DNA of 64,000 nt from an uncultured Planctomycetales bacterium (GCA_964612665.1 CAZTCI010000001.1:508896-572895); one strand, 5' to 3'. Counted from the stretch's first letter, positions 9,001 through 39,000 are shown. The notes: generated by a model from the letters alone, not told the origin. A program made the numbers and translations.

Positions 9001-12000
9001 GCGGTTTGCATCGATCATTTGCTGCGCTTCGGCGGCTTCATGATCTAAACGTGAACGGACATTCTTAAGTGTCTTAAACTCGACGGAAGTTTCATTGAAA
9101 TTGGGGAATGGATTATCTTGCGGCATGCCTAATTCGTTACGGACCTGCGCCAATTCTTCGGGAGTCAATAACTGCGAATGGTTTCCTTCCTGACCAATCA
9201 TCGGTCTTAGACCCCAGCCTTTGATCGTATGCGCAATAATTACCGTCGGGCGATCGCTGGCGCGGGCTTCGCTCAAGGCTTTGATTAACTCAACCAAATC
9301 ATGGCCGCCCAAATCGGTAAAGAGCTCATAGATTTTTTCATCGCTGTATTTCTTCAAGAACCGCTTTATTGGCCTTTTCCTTTCCAAAGAGAGTTTCTTA
9401 TTCTTATCATCCAAGGGAAAAGGCCTAATATTGACTTTTGTTTCTTCCTTTGGATTCACAAAAGTCAATAAAGAAGAACGTTGTTCGATCATCCAAGCGC
9501 GGATTCCGGCGCCGTTTTGAGCGGAAAGATTTTGGTAAACTTTCTGGTCGATTGTTTCCATAACTTTCCTAAAGACACTTCCCCCTCGTCGGGCAAAAGC
9601 CGCTTGCAATTTTCGGCCCCAGCGCAGTTCAACGACTTGCCATCCAGCCGCCGCGTACATTCCGCGCAGTTGATCCAATTTCCAGTTTTCGGTATTTCCG
9701 TCGAGTGATTGGCGGTTGTAATCGACAATATGCGTCACGCGGTCCAAGTTAAATTCTTTCACTAACGTCAGAATCTCCCGCAGGTTTCCTTCTTCAGATT
9801 CAGCATCACCCAAGACCGCGAAGAAATGCGAATCAGAAACCGCATGGCCATGCGCCTTGAGCCATTTCCAAACAACGTTAAGTGCTAAGGCAACCGCCGG
9901 CCCTATGCCAACCGAGCCCGTCGGAATTTTGACGCCGTCCGGGTCCGCCATTCCCGGATACGCGTGCAGGCCTGGTTTGTCTAATTCATCCGTGTTGACT
10001 TCCGGATGCTTGGCGATGAAGGCGGCTTTTAATTCTTCAAGTTCTTTTAAGACTTCTGGCGCAAGACGGCCCCTGATATCTTCAGCCCTGAAATCAACCG
10101 GCAGCCGGACAGCGTTATCACGCAAACGATAAAGTGTATCGACGGGTAATCGACCTAAAAGATATTGAATGGCATGATACACCGGCGCGGCGTGCGGTTT
10201 GTGGGCGACAAAATCATGACCGCGCATGACAGCCAGCTCGAGGGCGATCATAATGTGCAATGCAGACGCGGATGCAGCCTGGTGCCCGCCGGTTTTAGGC
10301 AGTTCATATTTAATTTTATTGGCTTCATCAATTTCACCGATTGAAATCCCAAGCGCCCGACGGGCGATGCTTTCTAAAGCTTCGATGTCCTTCGGTGCAA
10401 ATCCTTCCGGAATTTTATCATTTCTATTTCGGGGAGGCCGGTGTCCGGATGAGCTCATTGCAACAATCATCATCGTGGACAAGAACAACGCAGCCACATG
10501 TCCACCTACGAAGTAGGACACAGCCAATAGTCCATCCAGTGCCAGCGCGATGAGGACAAGCGCAGTTGCAAATACGGTGGAGAGGTTTTGATCTGAGCAT
10601 TCTTTTATTCCATTTTTTGTTTTTTTGGTTTCCTGAGCTGAAAACTTTTTCCACCAGGCAAACGTTTCACTCAAACCCGTCCCAATATTCTTTTGTCGTC
10701 TCAACTTGTTGACAATCAAAATGATTAATGTTATGTTGGCGTCGAAAAGATCATTGATCAATAATTGCGTGGCCCTCTTTGAAAGATGGGAGAATCGTAA
10801 GTGAAGATCTGGGAATTTGAATGGGACAACTGGAATATTGAGCATATTGCTAAACATTCCGTAAAATCTCAAGAGGTAGAAGAAGCTTGTTATCGCCGCC
10901 ACGTCGCTAAGAAAACTAAAGATGACATTTATCTTGTCTATGGTCAAACGTATTCTGGCCGTTATCTTTTCATCGTTATTAAATATAAATCTAAAGGAAT
11001 TGTTTACCCTATAACCGCTCGAGACATGACTGATTCTGAGCAGAGATTCTTCCTTAAACGGAGGTAACATATGATTAAGAAGTCTTCTGTAATCCCAAAA
11101 TTTAAGAATGTCGCCGATGCGGCTGAATTCTTCGATCAACATGATACGACCCAGTTTCTCGACGAATTGCAACCAGCGCATCTTAAGTTCCCTAAGCCCA
11201 AGCATCTTTTGATCACCTTGAAACCTAAACAAATAACGAGGCTCAGACGCTTGGCCGACAAAATGGGTAAACCTTCCGATCAAATTGTTGAGCAATGGAT
11301 CACCCAAAAACTTGCCGAAGGGTAATGATCTGCCCAATGTGGCACGGCTCAATTTCTTTACAATCTCTTTAAAAACGCCTTTCGCTTTATCTGAGGATTT
11401 GGTTCGAATCGTCAGTATCAACAGCAACACATCAACGGCCAACACAAGGAACATCAAATGTAATCCCGGTCCCGGAACAAAATATCCTTTAAACACAACC
11501 ACCGGACGTTCCTCATCAGGCAGAAAACCTAATTCCTCGCGGATCTCCTCGGGAGATATTCTTAAAATATGTATGGGCTGAGGATGATCTTCAAAATATT
11601 TTAAGAACAGGCTTGTAATCGTTTGTCCGTTATCAGAAGCAATATGAAGACGGCCCAGAATAAAAAACGTGTCTTTAGCAGCTTTTCGGCCGCGCGATAA
11701 GATATTGATCATATTGGGGAACATGAATGGTTCCCTTAGGTCAATAGCGAATCTAAAGTTCTCCGAGACATTGATCCCTTTCAAAATTTCTTGAACAGCG
11801 GGCTCGGCCTGGCCGACGACATGATTTTCGCGTTTGGCTCTGGCCATGAGGGCTTTTATAAAAACAACAGTCAAATCACGCCAAGTTGTCAAGTCTTTAA
11901 GCATGTCCGCTGAGTTATCCGGGGGCAATGTTACGATCGCGGAAAAAACGAGACTGTTCCGGGTGTTGTAATAAAGAGAAATGCGTCTGTATAACGTTGT

Positions 12001-15000
12001 AACAGGGTGCATATAGCCGGGAGGTAACCATTGGGCCAAATCCTGCCACGTGGGAAGGATGAACAAATTCAACGCAGAATGAATAAATCCTCTTTTTAGC
12101 GATTGCAGTTTATCTAAAGAAACCTTCGAAGGGTCGGACAGCCATTGTTCATATTGCAGATAGTCATCTAATCGGGTGGCCAATTCATAACTCAAAATCT
12201 CCTCGACGCCAAACAAATGTCCTTTGGTACTACGGTTAAAATGGGTCGACACATACCACAGTTCGTCTTCTTTAAACCGGGCCACTCCTTCGACACCCGC
12301 AAAGATTTTCTTGCGTGCGGCCAGGAGATGGATCTCTTCTCTAAATAATTCATGCTCGGGATTGGTATGGTTTTCCCCGATTAAAAACAATCGCGGTGCG
12401 GATTCGGGTTTCAGGCGGACAGCGAGGAAAATTAATGTGCTCAATAAAAACGTCAGGTTTAAACTATTATCGAAACCATGGACGGCAATAAAGAAGCTCT
12501 TGAAATTTTCAGTCTTTTCCAATTTTCTTGACGACAATTCTTTATTGATCTTGTTGCGTTCTGATGACACATAGGCCAGGACAGCATCCAAAAATTTTCG
12601 ATGGATTGAATCTGTGGGTTTTACAATACGGCCATATTCCGCATATAACGATACAGCTTTATCAAAGGAAACTTCCCAACGGAAGCTGACAGTCTTTTGC
12701 CAAACAATGATTTGGCCCCGCCCGACAGATGACAAGAAGGCATTGGCTTTCTCGTCCGACGGGTTTTTCCGCGCCTGCAGCAAAACACACTCTCCATTAA
12801 ATGGAGGATAAAGAACCATCCGGTAAATAAAACCCAAATCACCCCCAAATTTTTGTTTCCTAAATAAATTTTCCAGTGCCTTGAAATGATGTTGTCGGTT
12901 GGAAATATCTCCCCCTCCTTTAGGAAGATATCCGGCAGCAGCATTAATCTTTGACCAAATTGCTTGAACGGCTTTTTGTTTGACATTAAATCTTTCCGCT
13001 ATCTGTTGATCACTTAGACCTTCAACGAAACCATATAAAATATTCAATTGTTTTTCCGTAAATACTGGTTTTGCCACATCGAATTTTGGAAACGGAGGCC
13101 TCCGGTCGACAAGTCCTAACTTTCTCGCTTTTTTGATAAGTTCCCTTCGCTCCGACGTCACAGCCAACACTTTATAAAGTCTCGAAATCTTTGAGCGTAT
13201 ATTGATTGCCGGTGAACTCAGCGCCTGGCCGATCTCAATCGTAGTATTTCCTTTATTAAGCAATCTTAAGATATGAAGTTCAAGCTCACTTAGGATGAAC
13301 GCATGTTTTTTTGCGAAAAGTTGTTTAGGTTTAACCAGCCGCTCAGACGATCCGAAAATCGCCACGCGGTATTCTTCATGCTGATTGAAAAATTTCCAAA
13401 GAAGATAAGGGTAATCATTATTAAAGTCGCGGGGTCCGCTTTTAATTTCCAGATTTAAAAGTTGATGAATTTGGCTCCTTGACTTGCGGATGGTTTCGGA
13501 CCCTGTCTCAAGCTGAGCGGCAATGTCCTTGTCATTTAATCCAGCATAAAGGCCTTTTAGAATGGCTATGTGTCGCGAAGAGAGTTCTTCGACGGACGCA
13601 CAAGATTGAACGCTGCGCGCTATGGCCGCGAGGACAGCGACAAAGATAAAACTGAAATTGGATAAATAATCCGATGGATTTGTAAGGATAAAAAAGTTAT
13701 GCTCTCGCTGCAACCCTGGCAAAAGACTTTGATTATCTCTTTTACGAAAGACTTCAAAGGGTTGAACAAACATAAACTGCGCGCCCGCTGTTCCCCTGCT
13801 AGTTTTAAAAACTTCACTTTGCCTAATCTGATTATTCAACGCATCGAGCGCTTCTTTAAGCGGTTGCGAGGTAATCAAATCTTTCCAGCCTCTTAAGAAG
13901 CCTATCTGTTCGAGCGCGCCAAAGATCCATGGTTCTTCATCAAACACAATAATGGTATCACTAGACCTTAAATCCCTTAATGTATTAAGCAGCCTAACCA
14001 CGACTGGTTGATCGATCCAAAAAGTTCCTTTTAGAATAACAGTCACACTTTCTTGTCCAGCTCGACGTAGAAATTCGACAATATCATCCAGCGCGTTGTC
14101 GATGTGTAACGTTTCCTTAGGGTAAATTCTATTTAGCAAAATTTTTTCTGGCTCCATAAACTGATTCACGAATGATTGCAGCTCCTTATAAGCTCTTTGC
14201 CGGTCTTCATGGTCATAGAGCCGGTCAATTCCGAGGACCAATTGGGCCGGCAGCTCCGCCACAAAAATGTCAACGCCTATTGCGGGATAAATCCGATACG
14301 GTTTTAAGAGACCAACCGCCGCTAAGACTTCTAACTCTCGCCGCCAGGCCTCGGCCAATGGCCCATAATCAACGCTTCCCCGCGATGCCAACCGTCTGCC
14401 TTGTTCTTCAACTATCATGGAAATCGCTTGAATCTGCTGGAGAATTTCTTCTTCGGAAATTATTTTGCCTCCGGTCCGTCTTGTGCTCTTTCGTAACGCT
14501 CGAACCAAAAATATAACCAGCGCGCTAATTGAAATTAGAGCAGCTGCGGCATAAATAAAACCAGTATCAACTAACATCGACGATGATTCTGGATATTTCG
14601 CGTCATAAGTTTTCGCTAATTGATACAACGTCCGCTCTACACGGTCTTTAAGACGGAGGAATTGCCTTTCTGATAGGGTCAATGTCACCATTATCTCTGG
14701 CCAGGAGCATGTCAGAATATGATTATTATTGTTTTTCTCAGCGAAATCACTTTGGCTTGTATCACTGACCGCATCCATAAGGACTTCCAGTTCTAATAGC
14801 GCTTTGACAATTATCTGACTTGTTTCTTCACCTCGACGATAAACATCGGTCATATCTTGTTTGGTTGGCTCCAACCTTTCATCCGTTGAAGGTTCCGGAA
14901 CATTTTCAAGTTCCGTCTCAAAATCAAAAACTTGCTGCTCCAGTTCTCTTCCCTTCTTAACAGCCCAATCCAAGACCGACGCTTTATAAAACAAAAGTAC

Positions 15001-18000
15001 AAATTTCGGCCCGCGCAAATTATGCTTTAAAATATTTAAAATCCTTTCGGCTTCTTCTTGCATCTGGACATAAGAAATCTGGTCTTCATAAATCTGACCC
15101 ATGAGTATCTCAATCAGCTTTCGTTGATCTACATTTATTCTTTCCTCTCTCCAAATTCTCTCGAGGATTGAAGATGTTCCCGACAACTGGACAACCGGCA
15201 TCAGAGTCTCATAAAATTGAAACACCCTCTTTATCATTTCTGATATTTTTTCTGTTCTTTGTCCTTCATGCTGAGGCTTGAACCAAATATCGACTTCCGA
15301 CGTCACAATAAAATTCTTCATCTCTTCGTAATTGGTATTGATCTTTTCTCGAAAACTCTCAATCTTTTCTAATATAACGTTAAAGACTTTGTCCCACCCG
15401 ATTTCAGCTTCGGTTTTGTTTTCATCGGCCGATTTTGTGTCTCCCTCTCGATCCCCTGCTATGCCTTCCGAATGATTTTCAGTGACGATTACCACTATCA
15501 CTGCTCCCACCCACAACATAAAAGAAATGACCGAGAGATCTAAGAAGGAATGCTCATTGTTCCGGTTTCTGTTTCTGAAATTTCTCCTCCGGCCTGATGA
15601 ATTAAATCTTTCTGTCAACCGCCGTAGATCCTCTAAGTTTGCACTCATGCTCAAACCGTAGTCATTAAAAATATCTCTCAGCGTTTCGGTGACTTTGGAA
15701 ATTCCAGAAAAATCGACCTCTTGGCTCAATGAAAGCATTTCCAAGTTATATTGCCGCAGCCAGCCCTGAAATTCCGCGGGGGTGATTCCACGGGATTCCA
15801 AAGCCTCCCAAAGCCGGAGTAATACAATTCCCATTTCTTCGATTGTTTCCGATTGCTGCCGTTCTATTAAATATTCTCCGCTTGTCGCGGGTTCTGGCAA
15901 TCTTGCCGGTTTTTTTCTTGTTTTTTCCGGCCGGGGAATTCTATGGCGAGGAAAGGCATTGTAAACAGCGCGCTGTATATTTACGAGTTCAGTCACTCCG
16001 CTGCTGATGGCATTTTCAGCCGCATGCAATGCCTTTGTGAATTTACTCCGGCTGGAATTGAAAGACTCGAGGAGCCATGGAATAACTTGTTGGTTCAAAA
16101 TTTCTTCACCACGGCGTCTGGCTTCTTCGCTTAAATTAACCTGATGGGATAAAGAAATTCTCTTATTCATCCAGCGGTCTGCGACGACTAATCCTAAGAA
16201 TTTATATTCAGGATACTCATAAAGATAAACACTGTAACGCGGCTCGTCTTCATTCAATTCGACTAACCGGTATGACCTGCCTTCGCCCCGAAAATCTTCA
16301 TAAATTCCTTCACCCAAATCTCTCAAAGAAAACCAGACAAACTCTCCATCTCTAATCTTGAAGATATCCTCCAGCCATCTTCTTTCTTTTGTTATCTGAA
16401 CGAAATACTTTCCGGCCTGCAATTCTTTGGGGGTGGAATTTTGGGGATTAGGTTTCCGGCGTGTGACTAATGTAAACCACAGCCATTCACTCTGATCGCC
16501 GCGTGCCGTAACGATTTTGGCTTTCAGGGAAACATAACCTCGAGTTCCCCATGAATACCAAAGATCAGCGAATCCGCCTAAATACGCGTCTCCGACGTAA
16601 ATTTTATCTAAACGGTAAAGACCTGTAGATACTCTTGGGTCAACAGCTTCAATCCCTTGGCCTTTCTTAATAATCATGTCGAAACCCTTGCGGTGAAAAT
16701 CAGCGATGTCTTTTCTCACATGACTACTCCGCGCTTTAAGCAGCTTTTGTTGCTTTCCTTGAATGCCCCAATAGTGAAGAATCGGGGAACGTTGTAATTT
16801 TCCGCCGATATTTTCTTCAAACCATACCGCAACATACTCGGAATAAACTGAAGACCAGCGCAGCCCTAAGTTTCCATAACGCTTTCGGACTGTAAACGTC
16901 GAATATCTTTTTCCAAAGAGCGGAATCTTTCCGTCGGCGGTAGTTTTAACATTCTCAATCTTAAGCAATTCATATCCTTGGGCAGACCATCGCTGCGCCA
17001 GTTCAAGACTAATGACACTGTATTGGCCCAAATTTTTTTCACGTTGTCCTTCGCGTTTCGATCCTTTAACGACCAGAATTAAACGCTGTTGACGATCGAC
17101 CTCATGCAGCACCATTTCCTGCTTCACTCTTCTCCATAATTTTGTCCACAACCGTATCCAATCTCGACGGCGCGGATAAATCCGTCCAATTTCAATATCA
17201 TTAATAACTCTGGCACTAATGTCTGCCAAAAGGCCGGCGTCTTTTTGGGACATTCCTAATGACTCCCGCACGGCTTTTAATCTCTTCCCTGGTTCTTGAT
17301 AGAAGTGATCCAACAATATCTTCCAGTCTCGCACCCCCCATCTTACCCGTGCCCCTTTTTCTAATCCCTTAATTTTGAAAGGAGTGGTATTGGATAAGTC
17401 AGCGATTTTTTGCGGCGAGAGTTCTAATATATTCCTGAATAACTTTAACTCTCGTCGGGCTTCTTCATACATTGTATTCAACAATAATGCCAAATCATCG
17501 GCTTTCCATCTGGCATTCTTTGACTTTAAATCATTAATTCTATTTCTACTGATATGCGCAAGAGCCGCGAGTTCTTCTGGCGACATTCGCAAAGCTTCCC
17601 GCAATATCTTTAATTGCCGACCGGCCTCTTTATGCAGTTTATTCAATATAATATTCCAACGGTCAACACTCTCCCTAACATGACCATTCTCTAAAGCACT
17701 AATGCGTCTGGCCCTAACCTTGCTCAAAGCACCAACATCTTTTGCCGTCATTCTCAAAGACTTTCTTAATACCTTTAATTGCCGATGGGCCTCTTCATGC
17801 AGGTCCTCGAAGTTCCATAATTCCGATCGGGACATGTTGAGTAATTCTCTGGATCTCTCTAACAGTTCAATCGATTTTTTATCATCTTGCCCCTGTCTTT
17901 GGGAAGAAGCCGCCATGCCAAGAATCACTAAGGATAAAACGGAGTATACCATCCATAAATTGCTTATAATTTGAACAACCGTTAAGATAATAATCGTCGT

Positions 18001-21000
18001 CGGTAAAATGATCAAGATTTGGGCAGATGAGGTTTTGTCGCGATAAGTCTTTTCAAATTTTCTAAGTGATTTCTCGGTTTTAGAAAGGACGTCATTATAT
18101 GAAACAACCATGAAGACCGCTGCTGATACAAACATCAACAACGGCAAAACAAAATGCCCAGTTCCCCGGACACTTTCCCATCCGGTAAAGATCGGCACCA
18201 GAAAGGAATTTTCCACCTCAACATCGGAAGTTGAGGTCATTTTGCTCTGATTTTGCAGGATCCGAGCTATCCGGGAAAGATAGAGAACATAAATAACGCT
18301 TGCGAAACCAATAAGCAACGTGAACAATTCTCCATTGAAAGCAATCATTCCGAAACCAAACAACTTTGTACGATCTTCCATGAATGTTTTAAGGAAATCT
18401 CTCATCTTTTCTTGAATTTGAGATCGAAAGATATCCTGAACCCGGCGAGGCATAATATTCATACGGGTGCCCGCTTGTTTCCATGCTTCAAATTTTTCTT
18501 TGGTGAATTCTGCCATGAGCCATTGATCTTCTTCGATGGTCTTCAACATGCCACCTTTTTGGGGGTCAAACATTTCACCCAAAACTCTTGAAAAGTCATT
18601 CACATCAAAAGCGACCATGCGACCCAGCTTTCCATCATGAGAAAATGTCAGACCGTAATTTTCTCGCCAATTATGAAAATCGCGATCAACCAGTCCATAT
18701 GTCCAAATCCGACGCGTCAAATTCGAGAATTCGTTTTGAATGTGCCGAAGCTCCATTTGCAAAGCACTCACCTCATCCCACTGTTTATGTTTCTCAGAAA
18801 TCTTTATACGACGGGCAATGGCATCCAGCACTTCTCCAACGGGATGCACGCGTTCTTGAACAATCACATAAGGGAAACTGGTAAGTTTCTCATCCACGAC
18901 AATCGTCAAGTTATTTAAAATAGTCAACGTCATGGCAAAAAGATGGCCCAAATGTTCTTTAACCAATAGGTATCCAGGCAACACTTCTCTCTCGAAGTCC
19001 ACGTCGGCCTTCGGGACCTTGATAATAAGATTTGGAAACGCATAGGAGTAATATGCTTTCATCAGCCCGCCTTGGTCCAAATAATGAAAGGTATGACCTC
19101 GTAGAATACCTTCAACGGTGGTGATTCGAATGTGGTCAAGGTGTTCCTGTAAAACAGTATCCTCTATTCCCATTCTACGCCCCCATTGCATCAACCTTTC
19201 AGGCCAGCCCTCCATATAATTGTCCAATAGCGCTTCCAGAAGAGCATCTTTTAAATTGTTCCTGATCCGACGTGATATAGGTTGGAGGTGGCGTTGAATT
19301 AGTTTTTGATATAACCATCTGAGTATTAATATTAGAGTAACAGCAGTAACTGCGATCAACACCCCTACACGCCACCCATGCATCAGCTCGCTAGAAATAA
19401 GCTGGGCGTTGGATTTTTCCGTTGTTACATCAACCTGCGGGGCCGAAACAGATGAAAACATTTCATCCACCAGCCGTTTGGCTTCCTTGGCCGCATCCAT
19501 GCTTGAACTCATTTTTCCCGAAAAAATGGAAATCTCTCGCGGACTTAAATGCTGAACCGTCGTCGGCCGCGCCGCATTCTGAACCGAACTCACCAGAAAA
19601 TCTTTGAGGGTAAAGATCGAACCAATATGGATCGGATTGAAATCGTGGAAGAATCGATGAGCTTCTTCTTTGATTTGGTCAAATGCCGTCACCGTTGGAT
19701 TCCAGATGATATCGCGTCCCAGTAAATCTTTATACTCATCGGGAATTTCTGGAAATTTGCCAACGTTGAGATGATGAATCGAGTGCTTCACATGAGCGAT
19801 AAAGTGCGCATTATTGCCTAAAGGATTGATCCCGACAAACGGCCCGTCCATAATCAAAATACTTTTGCCCCGGAATGCCGGAGGAAGAAGGACGACAGGC
19901 AACTCAAAAACTTCGAATTGATAGTTTTGCTGATTGGCCGGTTCCGCAATGAACCGATTAATATCGCTGTAAACGGCGTAGACAACGGCATCATAGTTCT
20001 TTAATTTTTCCGGAGTTGCCTCCTGAATGAGCACCTGCACATTGAATTCCTTAAGTTTATCAACGGAGATCTCCGCCAGCTTGCGGATGTTCATAAAGTC
20101 TTCCCCAACAAGCAGCGATAATCCCACAGAATTTTGTTTTAACACCTCCGGATACTTTGTCTCGTAAGGCAAATTAAAACGATTTAATAAAGTCAAATAC
20201 TGCTCGGGCGTAACCGCGCTTCCTTCCGCGGCGATTGCATAGTATTGTTCCAAACTCAAAACCGCTTCACCGAAGACACTCAAAAAGCTTTCACGAGAAT
20301 TAATGACTTCTTGGACAGTTTCTGGACTGCGCGGGTGATGATAGCCGCGATGCAAGCGGCGATCCCAATTGCCGGACACGCCGCCGAAGAGTTTGTTGCG
20401 TTCATACAAAGTCACATCGTATCGAGAATCTTGAGCAATAAACCATGCGGCCGTGATCCCGAAGATTCCGCCTCCGATGACAGCGACTTTGCGTTTCGAT
20501 GGAGCAACAAACGCAGAACGGGACGCCGAAGGAGGTATCCCGGCATCGGCACTCAAATCGAAATCAAAGTATGGCTCCTCAAGCATGTCATCCAAATCGA
20601 TTCCCTCGAAGACCTCTCCCGAATTATCATTAGATTGAACAACTTTAGGATTCACGGGTTCTTCATCTTTCCAATTCCATCCGCCCGCTGCGATCTTTTC
20701 ATCAAACAACCGATGCGGATAACGCATAATGACCGCGTTGACGCCGGCGAATCCGCCCATGCCGTCGTGAACATCGTAACGGCCGCGGATGATGTATTCG
20801 CGATTCCAACGCACCGCTCCGTTTTTCTCGTGATAGCCTTGCGCCGCGTCGGGACTGTAGGTCAGCAATTCTTCCAGAGCATCGCGCCAGGCTTGCAAAG
20901 CTTGAATGTAAATGACCGCAGTGCCGATCCCGCCGACTTGCTTGCCTCGCACGCGATAATGATCGACCCGCGGATGTTTGGCCACAGCCAAGACCGATGG

Positions 21001-30000: not shown

Positions 30001-33000
30001 TTGCCGAACGGCTTGGTCATTGTGCATTGTCGCCCAAACACTATGCATGCGCTCTTCAGGAAATTCTTCTGTAATTCTGGTGTAAATCTTTGACATTTCA
30101 AAAAGCGGTTCGGCTCCTGCTCGCAAGAACACAATACGCGTGTTCTTCCGGTATTGCTTATTCTCTTCGTGGGATCGAGGATATTCTTTGATACGCATGA
30201 ATACGTGTTGTATGAAATCCATCAATCCCAGTCTGCGCTCGGCGCCATGACCCAAAAATGTCGTCAAATGTTTAGTATCCAAATAGTGTTGATACGCTTT
30301 GGCAAACATTGCTTGATCCCCCGCAGAAAAGATTCGTCCGAGGGATTGAATACTCTGATTACGCGCGCGAACATTATCTTCATGTAATCTGAGTCGATTT
30401 AATCTAACCGAGGCAATGGCCGCAAATCCTGCCAGGATTTTAAAGATCAGCATTACACCCTTGATGCCGATTATGATCCACGCGGCGTCGAGGGTGAGGG
30501 CGGGAAGCTTTCCAACATCAGATGTTGGAAAGGGCGGGTTCAACCTGCGGGGTTGATGTCCGTTGGCATGCTTCTCTTGCGGATGGGTGAACTTTTCCGA
30601 GGAAAACTTCTTTATATCTTGGTCGCTCCACTCTTCTCCAAACACCTTTTTTAAATCCGATTTATTTCCGTTCTTTCCGTTCCTCTCCTTCTTTGCCAAA
30701 TCGTCATAGAATTTTTTCATGATCTCATCTTGCCGACGATCGAACTCCTCGGCGGAGAGAGACCAGTCATCTCGCTCTCGTTTGTATGCTTCCTCCGGTT
30801 TCCGATTCTGATTTAACCAAACGTCCTTAAGAACATCGTAGAGATTACACAACATGCGATTCCCCGCAAATTGCCTTAATCCCTCCCGATTGTCCTTATT
30901 CTTCAATATAATGCGGGCCATTTTAGTCTTCTCGAGATCCTGCTTGAGAAGGTGAACTAGGGCTTCATGGCGTCCGAGGTTTATTTTGGCCTCCCCGAAC
31001 ATGTCTTTCACAATTTGAACAAAAAGCTCAGGACCGATCTCCCTCATCGATAGCCAGGCATGCAAGACGATTTCTACTTTTTCTTCCTCGCTTTGAATAC
31101 GATGATGCCAAATCCAGATTTCATCAGAATTTTTGAGACCGCCAGAGGCATGGGAAGATCGAGAAAGGTCCCCATAGATCACACCGACGACGAAGAAGAC
31201 CACGATCAACATTTGTATCGGCGAGAGAACCGTCGACTCCACTCCCAATCCCAAGGCATTCATGGCCGTTGGTTTCCCGGGCCCGCGGAATGCTGTGAGT
31301 TCATTCAACCTGCGGGGTTGATGCCCGTCGGCAATTTCATTCGAAGACTTGATGTGGCGGAATCCTCGGTCGGAGATGTTCAATGTGAACCCATCCTCAT
31401 CAGAGAAACTACTGTAAAACAAAATCTCCCGGGCCAAATACGTTTCGTTAAACTCGATGACCAGCGCCTCACGCTTTTGGCCCATCTCCAACAGATCGTT
31501 CCACAAGAATGTTCTTGAAAAACGAAGTTCGCCAGCACCGATACGAAACGTAATGATGATGTCATTTCCGATGAGCCGGCCTTTCACAAAATAGATCCCT
31601 TGATCTTCCGTCACAATCCGGATTCTGGAATGTCTCAACAGCGTTGAAATCGGCAATTTGATTACTTCTCTGATATGATAAACTTTCTGGAGGGAATATT
31701 CGGCGTAGAAGGACAGCTCGTCTGCATCTGGAAGATGAAGGATAAAGTCATGAATCGGCGGCAATCCGCAGGCGGAATTGGTGAGCATGGCCATGATCAT
31801 AAAACGGATCAGCGTCGGGCTGCGAGTGAAACCAGCGACCTTAAGCCAGAATAGCCATACGATCATTGCCGTAATCAAAACGGCGAGGAAATATGCTAAG
31901 AAAGCAGCTGATAATTTCTCCTCAGAAGACGTCTTCCACCAGGTATATTTTTCCTTCATCTCATGATAGGAATTCAAAATAAGATTTAACGTTCCCTTCA
32001 CGCTTTGTTCCGTTGTCCCCCGCTCGGTGCTGATGTCTTGAATCGTCCATCCATTTAAGATCAGCGTAATAATCTCGCGCTGCGGCGGCGACATTTGATT
32101 CAATAGGGCCCGACGATGTGGATCCAATGATTGAGAATCGCGGATAATTTCGCCCAGGATTTGTTTCCGTTGAGAAGCACCCGCGCCTTGGAAATGAATG
32201 TTGATGCCTTCATGCAGCGGATATAATTCATCGCACCTTTCTTCCCGTTCAATTTGTTCTCTTAGGGGTTTCAAAGACAATTCGTTCTTAAGATCACGGT
32301 ATCTGAGTAATCCTCGACGGGCGGTGATGATCACCGTAGTCCACTTAATCTGCAATAGTCGGGCCACATCCGCCGGATGATAACCTGCAATGGCAAACGG
32401 AAGAATTTCTCGCTCCTTTTCCTCCAGCTGATCAAAGATCTCTCGATGGTCCAAGAGAAAATCTTGTTTAACCTCTCTGAGAATATTGATGAATTCTCGA
32501 CGGTTGGGAGATTTCAGGAAGAAATTGAATTCCGCATCTCGATCGTTGCGGATAACCATCATGGCCAACATGCCGGGTAAAAGGAGTATGACCAAAAAGT
32601 AAAGGCCCTGTATTTCTATAAAAATGATCTGTGTAAACGCGATCAAGACAAGCACGGACGGGAATACGGCGGAAAGTTTTTCCACCTTCCGATCTTGCGA
32701 TGTGGGGGCCAACTCTTTCTCAACAAGCTCCCCACGATATACCATCCGCTGAACAAGGCCCATCGGATAATTGATTTCTTTTAAGTCACCCTTATAGGCT
32801 TCACGCCGGATAACTTCATTGAGCAGGCGAAGTTTCTTTTTGATCTTTTGGACCTGATCTTTTTCTTGCGCACTTAAACTTTGATGATTAACGTATTTTT
32901 TGTGAAGTGTATAATCGTAAACGCTGAGCGAGATCGTCTGTTGTTCTTCTCCAACAATAACGACATTACCTTGATCCCCGGCTGGTTCGATGAAGAATTG

Positions 33001-36000
33001 ATACACAATTCCCTCAGCATAGAGATAATATTGGATTTGTGCATGGCTGTTATTAAAAATGCGGATATCATCAACCGAAAGATAATGCGGCCCATCAGGA
33101 TGATTGTGCAGGTCCAAATAAACGAGGGGATAATCTGGATTTAGTTCCGGACCGACGGAATCCTTATCGCCTTTGACGATACTGTAAAGGTCCCCTTCCA
33201 AGGATTGATGGGAAACTTCAAAAGGTAAATATCCAGAGGCGACGGTGTAAAAACGATCAATCGCGCGCCAGAACTCCGGCGTCCCGACGGCCGCGGCAAA
33301 TGGTCGAGCGCTGTAGCGTGTTCCTTCCTTCGCACTAATAATATCCTGCTTTATCTGATCGAGCGTCATGACTGGCCGACGCTGGATCCGGGAGATAAAC
33401 TTCCGACGGATGAATTCCTGGGCTTCCAGTTCATGGACGGCCATACCGATTATCGCGACCGCCGTCAGGCCGAGCAGGCTAAGCCAATCGGTATAGGCGG
33501 AAAGTTTTTCCACCTTCCCAACCCCGGAGGTTGGGGAGGATAATAATTTTTGGCTAAGATCTGCAGCCACATCCAAGTTTTCCAACACTTTCGTCGCATC
33601 TTTAGAACTTTTAATAAAGACAACCGCCTGAGAAACCGCCGCCGATATTGTTTCTATTTCGCCGATCATCGGAAAACTTCTCTTCCAAATAGCAAACTGG
33701 TGATTCCACGCAGCCAAACGCAGTTTGATGGCCAGATACCTCTTATCGGCCCATAACTCCTTCACTTGATCTCGGGCATGGACCATCGACGGGATTCGGT
33801 CCAAGGACAGGAGCAATCTTTCCTGATTTTCCCGTCGTTGTGCTTCCTGAAGTTCCCGTAATTCTTTTCTAATTTGCTGTAGTTCTTTTAAACTATGGAA
33901 CAATTGCTCAGTGGACGGGCCTTTAAGGACCGTCCGCGACATAGCTGCTGCCATTGCCCCCATCCCAGCAGAGAGCAATATCTTTCCGACGGGGATTCCA
34001 AACCATAACGCGGTCCCCCCATCTACACCTACGAGGTAAAGATGGATCCCCACTCCATACAACGCCAGTGCAATCATGACGGATGGAAATATGGCGAAAA
34101 GTTTTTCCACCTTCCCAACCCCGGGGGTTGGGGAGGATCTGAGGATCACCGCCAGCATTTCAATTAGTCCAACCAATCCCTTAAACACAATCCAAATCCA
34201 CACGGCTTCGATCGTGACGGCGGAGACGTTCTCGATGGGATTGTGATCGAATTCTTCTAGCGCATCGATTTTTCCGTATAAATATTGGGCCAAATGGCGG
34301 ATATCTTTTCGATAGTCGTGCGTCTTAACCAAATCCCAGAGGTTCAATTGTTCCCATTGATCGCCGGCAGCTTCGAGAGCTGCTTGGATTATCTTTAACC
34401 ATTCCTTCGCATAGAATTCTCGATGACGGAAATTGGACGCCACAATCCAGTGCAGTAATTCTTCTTCGGAAGATGTCTTCAACATCTCAATCGCGGCCCG
34501 GCGTTTGGCTGGCGAAGTGACCACCAAATCATTCATCCGCAAATGCTCGTTGAGAATGTGCTTCAGGCGCCGAGTCCTGGCAGAATTCGCCAAGCTGGTT
34601 TTATTTGTGAAGTCATCAAGAGAATTGAACGGATTGTTTAGCTTGCGAACCATCACCACAAATTCGGTCTGCGTCATTGTAAATCCACTCAAAAGAAAAT
34701 CCACCTCATCAGCGTAATTAAGGAAATATAGAATTTGTTTTTTGGTGTTTTTCGGGTGCTTCTGCAATTCTCGACGATGTTGCTCCGCATTTTCTTTCTT
34801 CTCTTTTCGTCTTTCGTTCTCTTTCTCTAAATCCGCCCGTGCCCTTTCACGAGGATTCTGAAATAGAATCTCTCGACGGTTTTCGGACGTTCGTTCCCAC
34901 GACATCGCAAAGACAAAGATATATGCCAGCAACATCCACGGACTGAACAGATAAGTACGAACTCCGGAATGATGGACGATTTGTTTCTGTGGAGTTTCTT
35001 CTTTAGTTGACAAGCCAACTTTCAGGGCTTGGGCGCGGCTGGCGGAGAGGTAAATCAACCGTTGAACAAACATGCCCGCGATCATCAGCACCGTAAAGAC
35101 ACTCATTCCCGTCGATAAATCGATCGTCACGGCGCGGTGTTTTTCGATATCAGAAGAACGACTTGGTGTTTTATCTTGTGCATTCAACCTGCGGGGTTGA
35201 ATGGACATCCTGTTCCCCTTCACACCTCCGAGGCGCGAAAGAGCATTATTTCTTAGCTTTTTACGAATACTTATAATTTTTAACACTGAACGAATATGCC
35301 ATTCTCTTAGCCCCAACCGCTCTTCCCGGATTTCTAATCTATCCCCAGGATATTTTTCAAAATCTGCAGTCACAATTTCGATAAGCCGTTCCCTTTTTTC
35401 TAGCTTTTCTCTTAAACGCACTCCCGCGGCTTTCTGCTTTAAGAACGTTAAATCATAATCCGGCCATATTTTGCTAATAATGTAATTCGACACTTGTTCA
35501 ATGTATTGATGCGATGATCCCATCTGTTCGACAATGATGCTTGATGATTGATCCAAAGCTATTTTGCGGACTAACACTTCTTTTTGCGGGAGCGTTAGTC
35601 CATACCTATCTCCTATATCGTTAAGGGTCCTTACAAGTCCTTCTTTAGTGATGGCATAGCCACTACTCTCCATAATGTCGCGAGCAAAACTTACTCTATT
35701 ACCATGCTCCATCGCTGTCTCCTGAGACGATAGAGAAGATCGGTATTCCTGGATCCCTTTTTGGCGATCTCGGTTTCGCGCATATGTATTTCGTTCGCCT
35801 CGAATTTTTAAATTAATTCCATTAACGACATATGTCAATAAGCCTACGCCATTGCGCCGATCAAATTTGATCACACTGCTGCGAATAGTTTTAATGAAGT
35901 CATCTGTTCTTTCCTTTAGGAAGGATCTATTCCATCTCTGTTTAACTAAGGGCATTTCTGTCAGACCGGCGATGAGGACTTCCATCGCCAAACCATCTTT

Positions 36001-39000
36001 CTTATCTTGAATAAGGTCAATTAAACGGCTCTGTTGCTCACGGCTTAAATATCCTCTGGAATGACGTGGCATGCCCAAGATCGTATTGACAGCGGCTTCA
36101 TCTCTTTGCTGAGGAGCCCAAATAATTTTAAGTTTAGACTCTTTAATAACCGGCACAGGAGGATTCAGCCCGTACCATTTCTTCATTTCATAAAGAATTT
36201 CTACTGAGCTTTTTCCTTTTAGATCGTGATTTTTTGCCCAGTTCAGCAGAAGCCCCTCTAAACATTTTCCTCCAAACCCTGGAATACCTGTATGAATAAT
36301 ATCGCCCACTTTTAAATCTACTATCTTCCCTGCACGGCGATGATTGGCTAGATGTTGAAGGATCGCCCATTGCAACCGCTCTTCAAGTTTGTCCCAGGAG
36401 AATTTCCTCGCCCGTCGGAATTGATCCAATACCGTTTCCAATTCTTCAAGGGTTACTGGTTTTTCTTCTGCCATCGTCATAAGAACAGCAGATGCGCAGA
36501 GGACTGCTATCCACGCTTCCGCACCTACGAGGTGCTGATGGGTAACCATGGCGACGAAAGCGGCGGAAATGATGATAAAGCGGAAGACTCCGTCGAGGAA
36601 ATCATTCAGTCGGCTGGGTTGAACAAATACAATTCGACGCAAAATGGAATTCACATTGTCTTGGCCGACATACGCAAGCGCCGCCGCAATTCCTACCAGA
36701 ACAAAAATCCATAAGGATGGACCAACGGCCATCAGTTTTATCTCTCGATCCCAAAACTGACTTGGCCCACACCGGCGGACAACAAATTTCTTTTCCAAAT
36801 CCTCTTTGACCGTCGTCACATCTTCTTGGACGATCGCGTCCGCCACACGTAAAGAAAATCCCATTTGCAGGGCCTGACGGCCGGGCATGGATGGGCTATA
36901 TCTCAAGCGAAGCCCCTGAATCAACGCGCGATAGGGCGCTTCCTGTCCCCGGAGAAACTTAAGGAAGGCAAACTGTTTGATTTCTTTGGTGGATACGGAG
37001 GTTTCAATATTATTTCTAAGATACGCTAAAAATTCTTTGTAATAACTGACCCAGTGCTCAAGGATTCTTTCCAGCCCCAACTCATTTAATTGTTTGTTCA
37101 AACGATTTGTGTTCCCAAAGACCAAATCTGTCGGTTTAAATTTATCAAATGTATCGGAGGTAATAGGACTCAATAAACAGCGCTCATTTAACGTTGATAC
37201 ACTGAGCTCATGCTTTTCGCCCCCGATTCTGACCCACCGCCCCAATCCCCGTCGGGCCAGGGCAATGAGATATTCGGGTTCGATATCAAATTGATCTTTC
37301 CCTTGATAATAAACGTGAATGTCCAGGTCCTTGATCATGGACCACAATGGGATTTGATTTTCGCTAAAAAGATAGGTCGAGGAGCCGGTGACCGTGATGA
37401 TCGGAGCCTCCACAATGGATAACGTAGCGACTTGCTTTAGAAGTTCGATTAAATCGACCGGCGGTAAAGCTGGATTGTCTGGCTGAACAATAAACTGGCG
37501 CTCAGGACGATAGTAGGAAATGTGTTCATCTTGGTCCACGATCAAAACAGGCCAATGCACTGTTTGGACCGCCGCCAGTAATATCAGCGCGTAGACCGCC
37601 TCGTTCAAACCGATCAGATCTCCGTGGGCCAAAAGACCGGATAAAGCCGCGAGGATGGCGATAGGGCGGAAGAGTTGTGCGATCAACCTGCGGGAGTGAA
37701 CAGACTTGATAAAGCGGAAAATTCCGTCGAGGAATAACATCACCCTCTCCGACGGCGGCGAAGTCTTGAGAAATTCGTAAAACGCGCGGAGGTTTTCAAG
37801 GATGACGCGGGATTTGGAGATTAGAACAGCGGCCATCAAAACAATAATGAGAATTTCCGCGAGGTGAAACACATTATTCGACGAAAAATTTGATTTTCTC
37901 GTCGGTCTTATCCGTGCAGTCGAAAGGAAATCGATTCGATGGGCGTTCAACGTCGCGGCATCTAATAATTCAAACCCTGGGAATGTTTGATCGACGATAT
38001 GTTTAATCAAATCCGCCAACTGATCCGCAGGGATTTTGATTAGATATCCTGGAATTCGGTGCATCTGCTGAGGACTAATTTCCCTCATCTCTTCTGCAGT
38101 CAAAAATTGAACCGCGGCCATCGATACAACCCGGCCTTCTAATCTGTTGACAGTCCATTTTCGCGACATTATACTTTGAATCGAAAAGGAGATAGATTGA
38201 TGACTTCTCTTCAAGATGCTATGAAAATCATTAAACCGCTTCAAAACCGTTTCAAGAAAAGCCATAAGTCCAGAAGAAAAACGAAGATTGCCGACGATCT
38301 TTTGGGTGCGTTCAAAGGTGCGACCGAAGGTAAATCTTCCAGTCAATGTGTTCGAGAATTGAGAAATTCTTCTTATGGTAAGTTTAAATAACCCTTCCTT
38401 GCTCTTGGACTCCGATGTCCTTGTCAGCTGGTTGACGCTCGAAGAAGATATTCTTACCCATAAAAAGCTCTGGGAAGCTCCCCACAAAATAATGACAATG
38501 GTTGAGGAAAATTCTTCTCTCGGTTGTTCAACGATTATCAATCTTATGGAAATCAGGTTTGTGTTGCGTGCTAAGAAGAAATTCAGTGAGCATAAGATTA
38601 CATCTTCTCTTAATAAACTCTCCGAGATTCTGAAGCTATTCATTCCAGATGAAATCAACCTATTAAAGGCGAATGAACTCCAGTCCAAATATCTTTCATT
38701 ATCGCCAACCGACGCTATCCTTCTGTCTGTGGCCACAACCCTAGACAATGTTGTCCTAATCACCCGCGATCGAGAATTATTGAAAGCTGCCTCAAAAATT
38801 GTCTCCGCATCAACTCCTGAAGAATTTCTGGCGAAACGCTGATCTCTTCTGTTCCAATAAAAATTCCCCACCAGCATTGCAATTAGCCCAACCACTCCCT
38901 TAAACACAATCCAAATAAAGCGGAAAATTCCGTCGAGGAATAACATCATCATCTTCGACGGCGGTGAGGTTTTAAGAAGTTCGTAGAACGCGCGGAGGTT

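Follow-up and report, generated by a model that had tools for sequence, protein, structure and literature searches.

Predicted toxin-antitoxin operons nested antisense within a giant bacterial gene

Three small self-contained operons, two of them predicted toxin-antitoxin (TA) "addiction" modules, lie backwards inside a single gene of more than 64,000 bases without breaking its reading frame, and the same arrangement recurs in other giant bacterial genes. We found no published description of this arrangement. The window (the whole 64,000-nucleotide stretch of DNA analyzed) is one stop-free minus-strand ORF of at least 21,333 codons, within which lie a brnT-brnA unit, a small antitoxin gene paired with a PIN toxin gene, and a coiled-coil gene that now carries an in-frame TAG. 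The features are as follows, with functions predicted from sequence.

1..63999, minus strand: single stop-free reading frame running off both ends, a giant multi-transmembrane (TM) mosaic protein gene that hosts the cassettes.
10709..10737, plus strand: cassette 1 promoter, TTGACA-17-TATGTT with a TG extended -10.
10801..11067, plus strand: brnT-like toxin gene (88 aa, GTG start, Shine-Dalgarno GGGAGAA), codon-aligned antisense to the giant frame.
11071..11325, plus strand: brnA/CopG-type antitoxin gene (84 aa, Shine-Dalgarno GGAGG), codon-aligned.
23030..23058, plus strand: cassette 2 promoter, TTGACA-17-TATTCT with a TG extended -10.
23083..23460, plus strand: coiled-coil protein gene (125 codons), codon-aligned, with an in-frame TAG at 23203-23205 that reads as CTA (Leu) in the giant frame; probably a pseudogene.
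23488..23537, plus strand: intrinsic-terminator-like hairpin for cassette 2, a perfect 14-bp stem followed by UUGUUUUUU (MFE -31.2 kcal/mol, z = -3.96).
37709..37908, no strand: lower copy of a 200-nt in-frame direct repeat flanking cassette 3, encoding a TM-containing 67-aa host motif.
38147..38175, plus strand: cassette 3 promoter, TTGACA-17-TATACT; the homologous promoter is conserved in most aligned related loci.
38200..38391, plus strand: small antitoxin gene (63 aa, Shine-Dalgarno AAGGAG), codon-aligned, overlapping the PIN gene by 17 nt.
38375..38842, plus strand: PIN-domain (VapC-like) toxin gene (155 aa), in the phase that shares third codon positions with the giant frame.
38915..39114, no strand: upper copy of the direct repeat (84% nt and 78% aa identity, spacing 1206 nt = 3 x 402).

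The minus-strand frame contains no stops, compared to 849-1344 in the other five frames. Hydropathy alone indicated about 90 hydrophobic, TM-like segments of 19 residues in its 21,333 residues, and in-frame Pfam domains include HATPase_c, Transketolase_N/pyr, DAO, HTH_3, Sigma70_r4_2 and GerE. A SecA_DEAD match scored 23.2 bits, just below the cut-off of 24.6, a P-loop_SecA match had an E value of 7e-4, and a HMMER search of that region gave only weak hits. No close orthologue of the giant protein was found. The ORF resembles the giant genes of Omnitrophota, although a connection to that phylum is inferred only from the architecture and from the fact that the nearest cassette relatives lie in Omnitrophota/PVC MAGs.

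The initial annotation had proposed that the only plus-strand TTGACA hexamers followed at exactly 17 nt by TATnnT mark the starts of three nested cassettes, and this observation was confirmed by our analyses. The strict pattern TTGACA-N17-TATNNT has exactly three matches on both strands (10709, 23030, and 38147, all plus), each just upstream of a plus-strand unit, whereas shuffled sequences gave an expectation of 0.16 and none of 100 shuffles reached three. The relaxed pattern (N16-18, TAnnnT) added 42542 on the plus strand and 35810 on the minus strand, making five matches against 1.49 expected, and allowing TTGAC[AT] added one more at 48271 on the plus strand. None of the additional plus-strand sites has a plausible ORF downstream. 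The annotation's two refuting conditions, that equally good promoter-like sites would be scattered away from ORFs and that other giant genes would never contain nested cassettes, were both examined and neither was fulfilled.

Of all 95 plus-strand ORFs of at least 60 aa, only the cassette ORFs had matches to Pfam, and, as the annotation had stated, no transposase or integrase ORF was found. The BrnA-like protein matched PF12441 at 37.2 bits, above the gathering score of 28, although its NCBIfam BrnA match was weak (E 4e-4); its gene starts 3 nt after the brnT stop, in the toxin-first order, and it is 71% identical to the copy in comparison locus L064 (loci recovered by homology searches with the cassettes are given L numbers), with differences concentrated at its own third codon positions. 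The BrnT-like protein matched PF04365 at 29.5 bits (E 9e-7), below the gathering score of 34.5; it aligns full-length with BrnT homologues and is 66% identical to the nested L064 copy and 41-45% identical (tblastn/alignment) to the nested L029 copy. One ORF from a set of six loci matched BrnT_toxin at E 6e-11, which we attribute to the L029 copy located by tblastn at 1564-1830. The PIN protein matched PF01850 at 36.4 bits, above the gathering score of 23.6, and has 24 full-length homologues, with the acidic residues D12, E59, D113, and D132 invariant across the 25 sequences. A homologous gene of ~58 aa lies upstream of the PIN gene in nearly all of 60 loci, nested and free-standing, although the 63-aa antitoxin itself had no Pfam or NCBIfam match and, by these searches, no recognized DNA-binding fold (AbrB, RHH, Phd, or HTH). 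Cassette 2 is not a recognizable TA module: the annotation had treated it as two ORFs, but it is one gene interrupted by a TAG, with only generic coiled-coil family matches and no homologues found.

The linker location was also supported, as every cassette fills a loop between hydrophobic TM-like segments, with gaps of 29-274 nt, an arrangement shown by about 16% of random TM-free 650-nt segments. The phase bias is real, and the argument that antisense stops can be avoided by synonymous Leu/Ser choices is correct and visible in the data. The codon-aligned ORFs (BrnT, BrnA, the cassette 2 gene and the antitoxin) use no TTA, CTA, or TCA among 31 Leu and 23 Ser codons, while the PIN gene uses 8 of 28 and 4 of 18, and the giant gene's own usage is 26% and 16%. 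The joint chance of no antisense stop under random synonymous codon choice is about 7e-7. Free-standing cassettes of the same family have 2-21 stops in the equivalent antisense frame (0 of 29 have none), whereas nested copies have none in 8 of 8.

Comparison with relatives showed that the TA frame, and not the giant frame, is under purifying selection. Nucleotide differences at TA codon positions 1/2/3 are.29/.19/.51 for the antitoxin,.23/.20/.54 for BrnT and.21/.16/.54 for BrnA, and TA-frame identity is 67-71%, compared to 37-40% for the giant frame on the same codons. Where the two frames conflict the giant frame appears to win, as the TAG that breaks the cassette 2 gene is read as Leu in the giant frame.

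The arrangement is not restricted to this window. All tested PIN homologues at 49% identity or more (L001-L008, L029, L144-L146) lie antisense in frames that are stop-free over the whole contig or locus, up to 16.6 kb, as does the closest BrnT homologue, L064. In contrast, about 38 more distant PIN loci, together with L147-L150 and 79 of 80 BrnT loci, are free-standing. Six of the nested loci carry further nested TA operons, namely HicAB, DUF433/DUF5615, MazF, BrnTA, and other PINs. Across 140 kb of giant ORFs, promoter-like sites number 23 on the antisense strand and 1 on the sense strand, with about 3 on each expected from shuffles, and in the six genome loci 13 of 18 such sites sit directly upstream of Pfam-recognized TA operons. 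Since the comparison loci were found through the cassettes themselves, cassette density in giant genes is biased upward in these data.

Several observations on the flanks bear on how the cassettes arrived. The giant-frame flanks are unrelated between loci, homology starts exactly at the -35 element, and the nested PINs form one clade in an NJ tree, albeit one without support values. In-frame direct repeats of host sequence, different at each locus, flank cassette 3 of the window and cassettes in L002, L005, L006 (two cassettes), L008 (58 nt, 100% identical), and L029 (203 nt, 95.6% identical), so the annotation's statement that there is no obvious target-site duplication is wrong for cassette 3. 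A 660-nt in-frame indel between L005 and L002/L003 removes most of a HicBA cassette. Conversely, cassettes 1 and 2 have no detectable flanking repeat, no empty-site allele was found for any of the three window cassettes, and no conserved cassette end was found beyond the promoter.

We consider the best reading, which we hold with reasonable but not full confidence, to be that these are selfish TA operons that inserted into tolerant, TM-bounded linkers, at least sometimes duplicating 45-200 nt of host sequence. In this view, because the giant frame must stay uninterrupted, the only insertions to survive would be antisense, a multiple of 3 in length, and in the phase where few or no stops face the giant frame; such a filter would account for the exclusive antisense orientation, the phase bias and the purge of TTA, CTA, and TCA codons. 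Selection would then act on the TA proteins, while the giant frame would simply read through, adding about 170-230 residues of filler to a loop. Once present, a TA module would resist loss and, as a by-product, penalize deletions of that part of the giant gene. Our analyses establish the anatomy, the dual open frames, which frame is conserved, the recurrence in other giant ORFs and the host-derived flanking repeats, whereas insertion as the origin, the filter, transcription and expression of the cassettes, translation of the giant frame through them, toxin activity and its neutralization, and addiction are all inferred. The interpretation offered by the initial annotation was therefore partly supported: the units are autonomous cassettes with a shared design, each with its own sigma-70-type promoter and Shine-Dalgarno sequence, two of the three being predicted type II TA modules, but the shared design is better explained by a survival filter on insertions than by a purpose-built architecture, and a stabilizing or regulatory role is not shown.

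The annotation's first hypothesis, that the TA operons are kept because they protect a very long, costly and recombination-prone gene against deletion, since any deletion removing a cassette would free the stable toxin from its labile antitoxin, is plausible by analogy but remains doubtful. It is consistent with the high density and diversity of TA families inside giant ORFs (about 17 cassettes in 76 kb of the six loci and 2-3 in this window, subject to the ascertainment bias noted above), with flanking direct repeats that would otherwise allow clean in-frame excision, and with the purifying selection on TA frames. However, all of this is equally expected for selfish modules, and the window is only modestly repetitive, with 10 direct-repeat pairs of at least 30 nt in 64 kb, so that the idea of a recombination-prone repetitive gene is weakly founded. 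Furthermore, cassette decay and partial deletion do occur, as seen in the TAG of cassette 2, the truncated PIN in L029 and the L002/L003 deletion.

An alternative origin, that ordinary intergenic TA operons were engulfed when neighboring minus-strand genes lost their stops and fused, is unlikely. The mosaic of unrelated enzyme and regulator domains in the giant protein, as if built by fusion, and the lack of repeats at cassettes 1 and 2 favor it. Against it are the host-derived duplications at many cassettes, some 95-100% identical, which implies recent events, the presence of the same cassette clade in unrelated contexts, and the gain and loss of cassettes between near-identical loci. Similarly improbable is the annotation's second hypothesis, that antisense transcription from the cassette promoters, by running head-on into giant-gene transcription or producing complementary RNA, tunes or processes giant-gene expression, for which there is no specific support. 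While strong, conserved promoter-like sites occur almost exclusively on the antisense strand and the terminator of cassette 2 would define a discrete antisense RNA, the conserved element is the TA protein sequence and not merely a promoter or RNA, unrelated TA families fill the same niche, type II TA promoters are normally autorepressed, and nothing ties cassette positions to regulatory points of the giant gene. Chance antisense ORFs or an assembly artefact are effectively refuted, since, although the aligned plus-strand frame has the fewest stops (849) of the five non-coding frames and contains other long ORFs (e.g., 20245-21168), those ORFs match no family, whereas the cassette ORFs have dozens of full-length homologues that are free-standing genes in other phyla, keep their catalytic residues and vary at third positions of their own frame, and the layout appears in more than 12 independent assemblies.

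A more far-reaching possibility, which we offer only tentatively, is that Omnitrophota giant genes act as cassette platforms, with lineages of TA operons having evolved coding that is stop-free on the antisense strand and so invisible to the host frame. This would let them move into and between giant genes by a mechanism that duplicates 45-200 nt of target and uses no recombinase encoded in the cassette. Their accumulation would help make these genes giant, as each event would add about 200 codons of filler plus a duplicated TM junction, and would also police the ORF against deletion. The strict no-stop filter would then be the first genetic evidence that uninterrupted translation of the whole giant ORF is under selection.

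With regard to known systems, the host ORF shares with the giant "archaeovorin"-type or mosaic genes of Omnitrophota (bioRxiv 10.1101/2023.11.21.568195; 10.64898/2026.06.07.730766) a length of tens of kilobases, many TM helices, a mosaic of enzyme domains and, at the weak scores given above, a divergent SecA-like region, but searches of the text of these two papers found no mention of antisense or nested genes or of internal promoters. Cassettes 1 and 3 share with BrnT/BrnA and VapBC-like PIN operons their domain content (for BrnT only at the below-threshold score given above), gene order, tight spacing or 17-nt overlap, sigma-70-type promoter and small size, and the same two-gene PIN module exists free-standing in many bacteria and archaea; they differ in lying wholly inside another gene's ORF on the opposite strand, in codon choice constrained so that the host frame has no stop, and in the separate clade formed by the nested PINs. 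In the superintegron arrays of Vibrio, which TA cassettes are thought to stabilize, many different TA operons with their own promoters are likewise interspersed every few kilobases in a long, otherwise deletion-prone stretch and flanked by repeats, but here there is no integrase ORF or conserved attC-like site, the flanking repeats differ at every site, and the array is a single ORF, inferred to be translated, on the other strand. Insertion sequences and other transposons carry a transposase gene, terminal inverted repeats and short target duplications of fixed length, whereas no transposase or terminal inverted repeats were found here and the flanking duplications are long and variable (45-203 nt). 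Inteins and the Rickettsia palindromic elements translated within host proteins are also selfish elements that persist in permissive regions of a protein by leaving the reading frame intact, but here the element is a complete antisense operon encoding its own proteins, harmless to the host frame through stop-free antisense coding and not through protein splicing or small size. Finally, as in the antisense overlapping genes reported in bacteria and phages, two proteins are encoded on opposite strands of the same DNA, with the codon-aligned phase favored because antisense stops correspond to a few Leu/Ser codons; those cases are mostly single, short or contested and arise by overprinting, whereas the genes described here belong to established families, are fully embedded and recurrent, and are inferred to have arrived from outside.

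One minus-strand frame has no stop codon across the whole window (63,999 nt, 21,333 codons), while the other five frames have 849-1344 stops. The translation of this frame has about 90 hydrophobic TM-like segments, as predicted by hydropathy only, and carries in-frame Pfam domains of many unrelated kinds: HATPase_c, transketolase N and pyrimidine-binding domains, DAO, methyltransferase, several Xre-type HTH domains, Sigma70_r4_2, GerE, and a sub-threshold SecA_DEAD with P-loop_SecA. This matches the published description of Omnitrophota giant genes, which have numerous TM regions, divergent SecA domains and mosaic enzyme content (bioRxiv 10.1101/2023.11.21.568195; bioRxiv 10.64898/2026.06.07.730766). 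No close orthologue of the giant protein was found: a homology search with residues 8151-8850 was swamped by the HATPase_c domain, and a full HMMER search with the SecA-like region gave only weak hits (best E 6e-12), which could not be used to collect giant genes for an unbiased survey. Several DNA-binding and TA-associated domains sit in the sense orientation within these multi-TM proteins and may be captured regulators or TA parts. In the window they comprise at least six Xre HTH domains, Sigma70_r4_2, GerE, and weak MqsA-like and Phage_int_SAM_4 hits (e.g., at + coordinates ~45100-45260, ~44100-44260 and ~28800-28940), and similar domains were found in the giant frames of two of the comparison loci described below, L005 (MraZ and NTP_transf_2) and L007 (Sigma70_r4_2). 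The module carrying the Xre-type HTH_3 domains is present as a 723-nt in-frame tandem duplication (43958-44678 and 44960-45667, 86% identical), with shorter related repeats at 44689-44758/44899-44968 and 45062-45106/45695-45739.

The initial annotation had reported that three plus-strand promoter-like motifs with identical spacing mark the starts of three cassettes, and this observation was confirmed. The strict motif TTGACA-N17-TATNNT occurs three times on both strands together, whereas shuffled sequences are expected to contain 0.16 and none of 100 shuffles reached three. The motifs and the genes downstream of them are as follows:
10709 (+), strict motif of cassette 1
10801-11067 (+), BrnT-like toxin gene
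11071-11325 (+), CopG/BrnA antitoxin gene
23030 (+), strict motif of cassette 2
23083-23460 (+), one 125-codon coiled-coil gene with an in-frame TAG at 23203-23205, followed by a hairpin with a perfect 14-bp stem and a U-run (MFE -31.2 kcal/mol, z = -3.96)
38147 (+), strict motif of cassette 3
38200-38391 (+), 63-aa antitoxin gene, starting with ATG
38375-38842 (+), PIN toxin gene, overlapping the antitoxin gene by 17 nt

Relaxing the motif to N16-18 and TAnnnT added sites at 42542 (+) and 35810 (-), and allowing TTGAC[AT] added one at 48271 (+). Neither of the extra plus-strand sites precedes a credible ORF and we consider both to be chance matches. The minus-strand site (35838-35810, TTGACA-17-TAATTT) is the only sigma-70-like promoter match on the sense strand of the giant gene in 64 kb, and none occurs on the sense strand in 76 kb of other giant ORFs, which suggests that internal sense promoters are avoided, or simply absent. 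Of all 95 plus-strand ORFs of at least 60 aa, only the cassette ORFs had hits to Pfam. A useful negative control is the longest plus-strand ORF (20245-21168, 307 aa), which is codon-aligned antisense to the GC-rich DAO-domain region but has no family hit and no promoter motif, and is taken as a chance antisense ORF. The cassette 2 protein had no homologs and only generic coiled-coil family hits. A tblastn search of the rest of the window with 46 TA proteins found no decayed TA relics, and a codon-usage log-odds scan for aligned nested genes was too weak to discriminate, as the cassettes had z of about 2.2-2.6 and so did several other places.

Four of the nested genes are codon-aligned with the giant frame, while the PIN gene is in the phase in which third codon positions coincide. 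Each cassette almost fills a loop between TM-like segments, with gaps of 29-274 nt, as do about 16% of random TM-free segments. However, such bracketing is not universal, since roughly half of the cassettes in other loci are bracketed tightly and those in L005 and L007 are not.

Both frames are kept open, but only the TA frame is conserved. In the aligned phase antisense stops correspond to the codons TTA, CTA and TCA, and the aligned nested genes use none of these among 31 Leu and 23 Ser codons, although the giant gene uses them for 26% of Leu and 16% of Ser. In contrast, the out-of-phase PIN gene uses them freely (8 of 28 Leu, 4 of 18 Ser). With random synonymous codons, the chance of having no antisense stop is.17,.036,.004,.055, and.54 for the five ORFs. 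Between homologous nested cassettes, nucleotide differences accumulate at the third positions of the TA frame (positions 1/2/3: antitoxin.29/.19/.51, PIN.34/.18/.55, BrnT.23/.20/.54, and BrnA.21/.16/.54). On the same codon-aligned nucleotides the TA proteins are 67-71% identical, while the giant-frame translation is only 37-40% identical. The DNA therefore evolves as TA-coding sequence under the single extra constraint that the giant frame has no stop. Conversely, the TAG that breaks the cassette 2 gene is a Leu codon (CTA) in the giant frame.

To determine whether this arrangement occurs elsewhere we examined homologs of the nested genes. The PIN has 24 full-length homologs in which the catalytic acidic residues are invariant. 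Every tested homolog at about 49% identity or more lies antisense in a frame that is stop-free over the entire contig or locus: the metagenome contigs L001-L003 and L144-L146; the genome loci L004, L005, and L007 (Candidatus Omnitrophota MAGs); and L006, L008, and L029 (MAGs labelled uncultured Planctomycetales), each open for 10-16.6 kb and running off both ends. About 38 more distant loci from Nitrospirota, many archaea and other groups, along with loci L147-L150, are ordinary free-standing genes. Free-standing homologs of the PIN cassette are common in methanogenic and methanotrophic archaea (Methanoperedens, Methanosarcinales, Methanocellales, and others; loci L015, L020, L023, L030, L032, L040, L045, L047, and L050-L052), organisms of the kind attacked by the cultured Omnitrophota predator, so that horizontal acquisition from prey is conceivable, although this remains speculative. 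A free-standing homolog in a Candidatus Ratteibacteria MAG (L009 9961-10440, 48% identical) has an antisense frame that is open almost exactly over the PIN gene (480 nt) but not beyond, which may be chance or indicate a former nested copy. The same ~58-aa antitoxin precedes the PIN nearly everywhere, so this is an established two-gene module. In 29 free-standing cassettes the equivalent antisense frame has 2-21 stops and never zero, while in 8 of 8 nested copies it has zero. The nested PINs form one clade in an NJ tree, for which there are no support values. A scan of viral contigs for the PIN cassette found nothing. For BrnT, the closest of 80 metagenomic homologs (L064, 66% identical) is nested in a stop-free contig with both genes aligned, while the other 79 are free-standing, and a second nested BrnTA is present in L029.

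Nested TA genes are a general property of the giant ORFs examined, although cassette densities in the comparison loci are biased because these loci were found through the cassettes themselves. In the six genome loci (76 kb), plus-strand ORFs of at least 62 aa had hits to essentially only TA-related families: PIN (8), DUF433 and DUF5615 (2 pairs), HicA and HicB (2 pairs), BrnT with CopG, MazF with an AF2212-like antitoxin, and DUF5647. The sole other match was a weak hit to Exo84_C (E 1e-4). The giant frames of these loci carry real domains too. Across 140 kb of giant ORFs, promoter-like sites (TTGAC[AT]-N16-18-TAnnnT) number 23 on the antisense strand and 1 on the sense strand, while shuffles give about 3 ± 1.7 on each, with a maximum of 8. 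In the six genome loci, 13 of 18 such sites lie directly upstream of Pfam-recognised TA operons. Among 34 nested genes, 22 are codon-aligned, 11 share third positions with the giant frame and 1 is in the remaining phase. For the PIN family, the phase used is the one with the fewest potential stops (a mean of 2.7, against 6.8 and 12.2 in free-standing homologs).

Several lines of evidence are consistent with an origin by insertion. Giant-frame translations of the ten PIN-bearing loci match each other only across the cassette, with the exception of the near-identical trio L002, L003, and L005. Homology begins exactly at the -35 hexamer, and the promoter, SD and antitoxin start are conserved in most of the nine aligned loci. 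Based on DNA self-BLAST (a self-BLASTP of the whole giant protein returned nothing usable), cassette 3 is flanked by a 200-nt in-frame direct repeat of host sequence (37709-37908 and 38915-39114; 84% nt and 78% aa identity) that encodes a TM-containing 67-aa motif. Comparable flanking repeats occur at L002 (84 nt), L005 (117 and 45 nt), L006 (two cassettes), L008 (58 nt, 100% identical), and L029 (203 nt, 95.6% identical). The repeat sequences differ from locus to locus, so they come from the target and not from the cassette, and all spacings are multiples of three. The L008 repeat around the PIN cassette (9670-9727 and 10468-10525) contains a perfect 16-bp inverted repeat (AGAGGCGCTCTTTGCC...GGCAAAGAGCGCCTCT), which might be, for example, a terminator or a recombination substrate. 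Cassettes 1 and 2 show no flanking repeat. However, a direct repeat encoding a TM helix ("WMMILNLAI...") is present at 21737-21839 and 22850-22952 (80.6%, spacing 1113 nt, in frame), its upper copy lying 78 nt below cassette 2. This repeat brackets a 1-kb module with no recognisable plus-strand gene and could mark a module duplication or a vacated or decayed insertion.

There are also signs of cassette decay and turnover inside giant ORFs. These include a truncated PIN of 118 aa (L029 9808-10333), a second partial DUF433 copy (L029 6379-6449/14275-14345, 98.6% identical over 71 nt), and a 660-nt in-frame indel between L005 (8458-9107) and L002/L003 that removes most of a HicBA cassette and, as a deletion, fuses the HicBA promoter region to the PIN cassette. 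No transposase or integrase was found, a search of the cassette ends for short target-site duplications or terminal inverted repeats gave only chance-level matches, and there is no conserved end motif across the homologous cassettes.

The best-supported account of these data has three steps. In this view, selfish type II TA operons insert into tolerant linkers of giant genes; only antisense insertions that are a multiple of three in length and free of stops survive, because the giant frame must not be interrupted; and codon choice in the nested genes stays constrained afterwards. The shared design recognized in the initial annotation would then be the signature of that filter, combined with ordinary TA operon anatomy, and the interpretation offered there is only partly supported. 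Our analyses demonstrate the anatomy of the cassettes, the dual open frames, the direction of selection, the recurrence and the flanking duplications, while insertion, expression of the cassettes and addiction are inferences. Of the roles proposed initially, the data neither support nor exclude selection on the host for an anti-deletion effect, and antisense regulation has no specific support. Engulfment of the cassettes by gene fusion is disfavoured by the recent flanking duplications and the unrelated contexts, and chance ORFs are excluded.

These findings have several implications. Giant ORFs tolerate what we infer to be foreign insertions of 500-700 nt but never a stop codon, which is genetic evidence that read-through of the whole ORF matters and bears on the open question of whether giant genes are translated as one unit. 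The findings also point to a route by which giant genes grow and by which selfish genes find a refuge in very small genomes. A practical consequence is that gene callers report either the giant ORF or the nested genes, never both, so TA content in these genomes is systematically under-annotated. Exact-protein look-ups of the nested PIN and BrnA of the window found no record in a collection indexing 153 billion gene positions. In addition, the contigs carrying nested-clade PIN genes (protein hits P0121-P0137) are almost all under 3 kb, and cassettes and giant-gene repeats probably break short-read assemblies.

The two Omnitrophota giant-gene papers do not mention antisense or nested genes, and full-text searches on giant genes together with toxin-antitoxin systems and antisense, nested or overlapping genes found nothing relevant, so that within the literature searched the arrangement appears to be undescribed. 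Fully embedded, conserved, functional-looking operons on the antisense strand of another intact ORF are extremely rare, while here they are systematic, with more than 20 cassettes from at least 7 TA families in more than a dozen assemblies. They represent some of the cleanest evidence for large-scale antisense dual coding in bacteria, with an internal control in that codon use differs with phase exactly as the stop-avoidance rule predicts.
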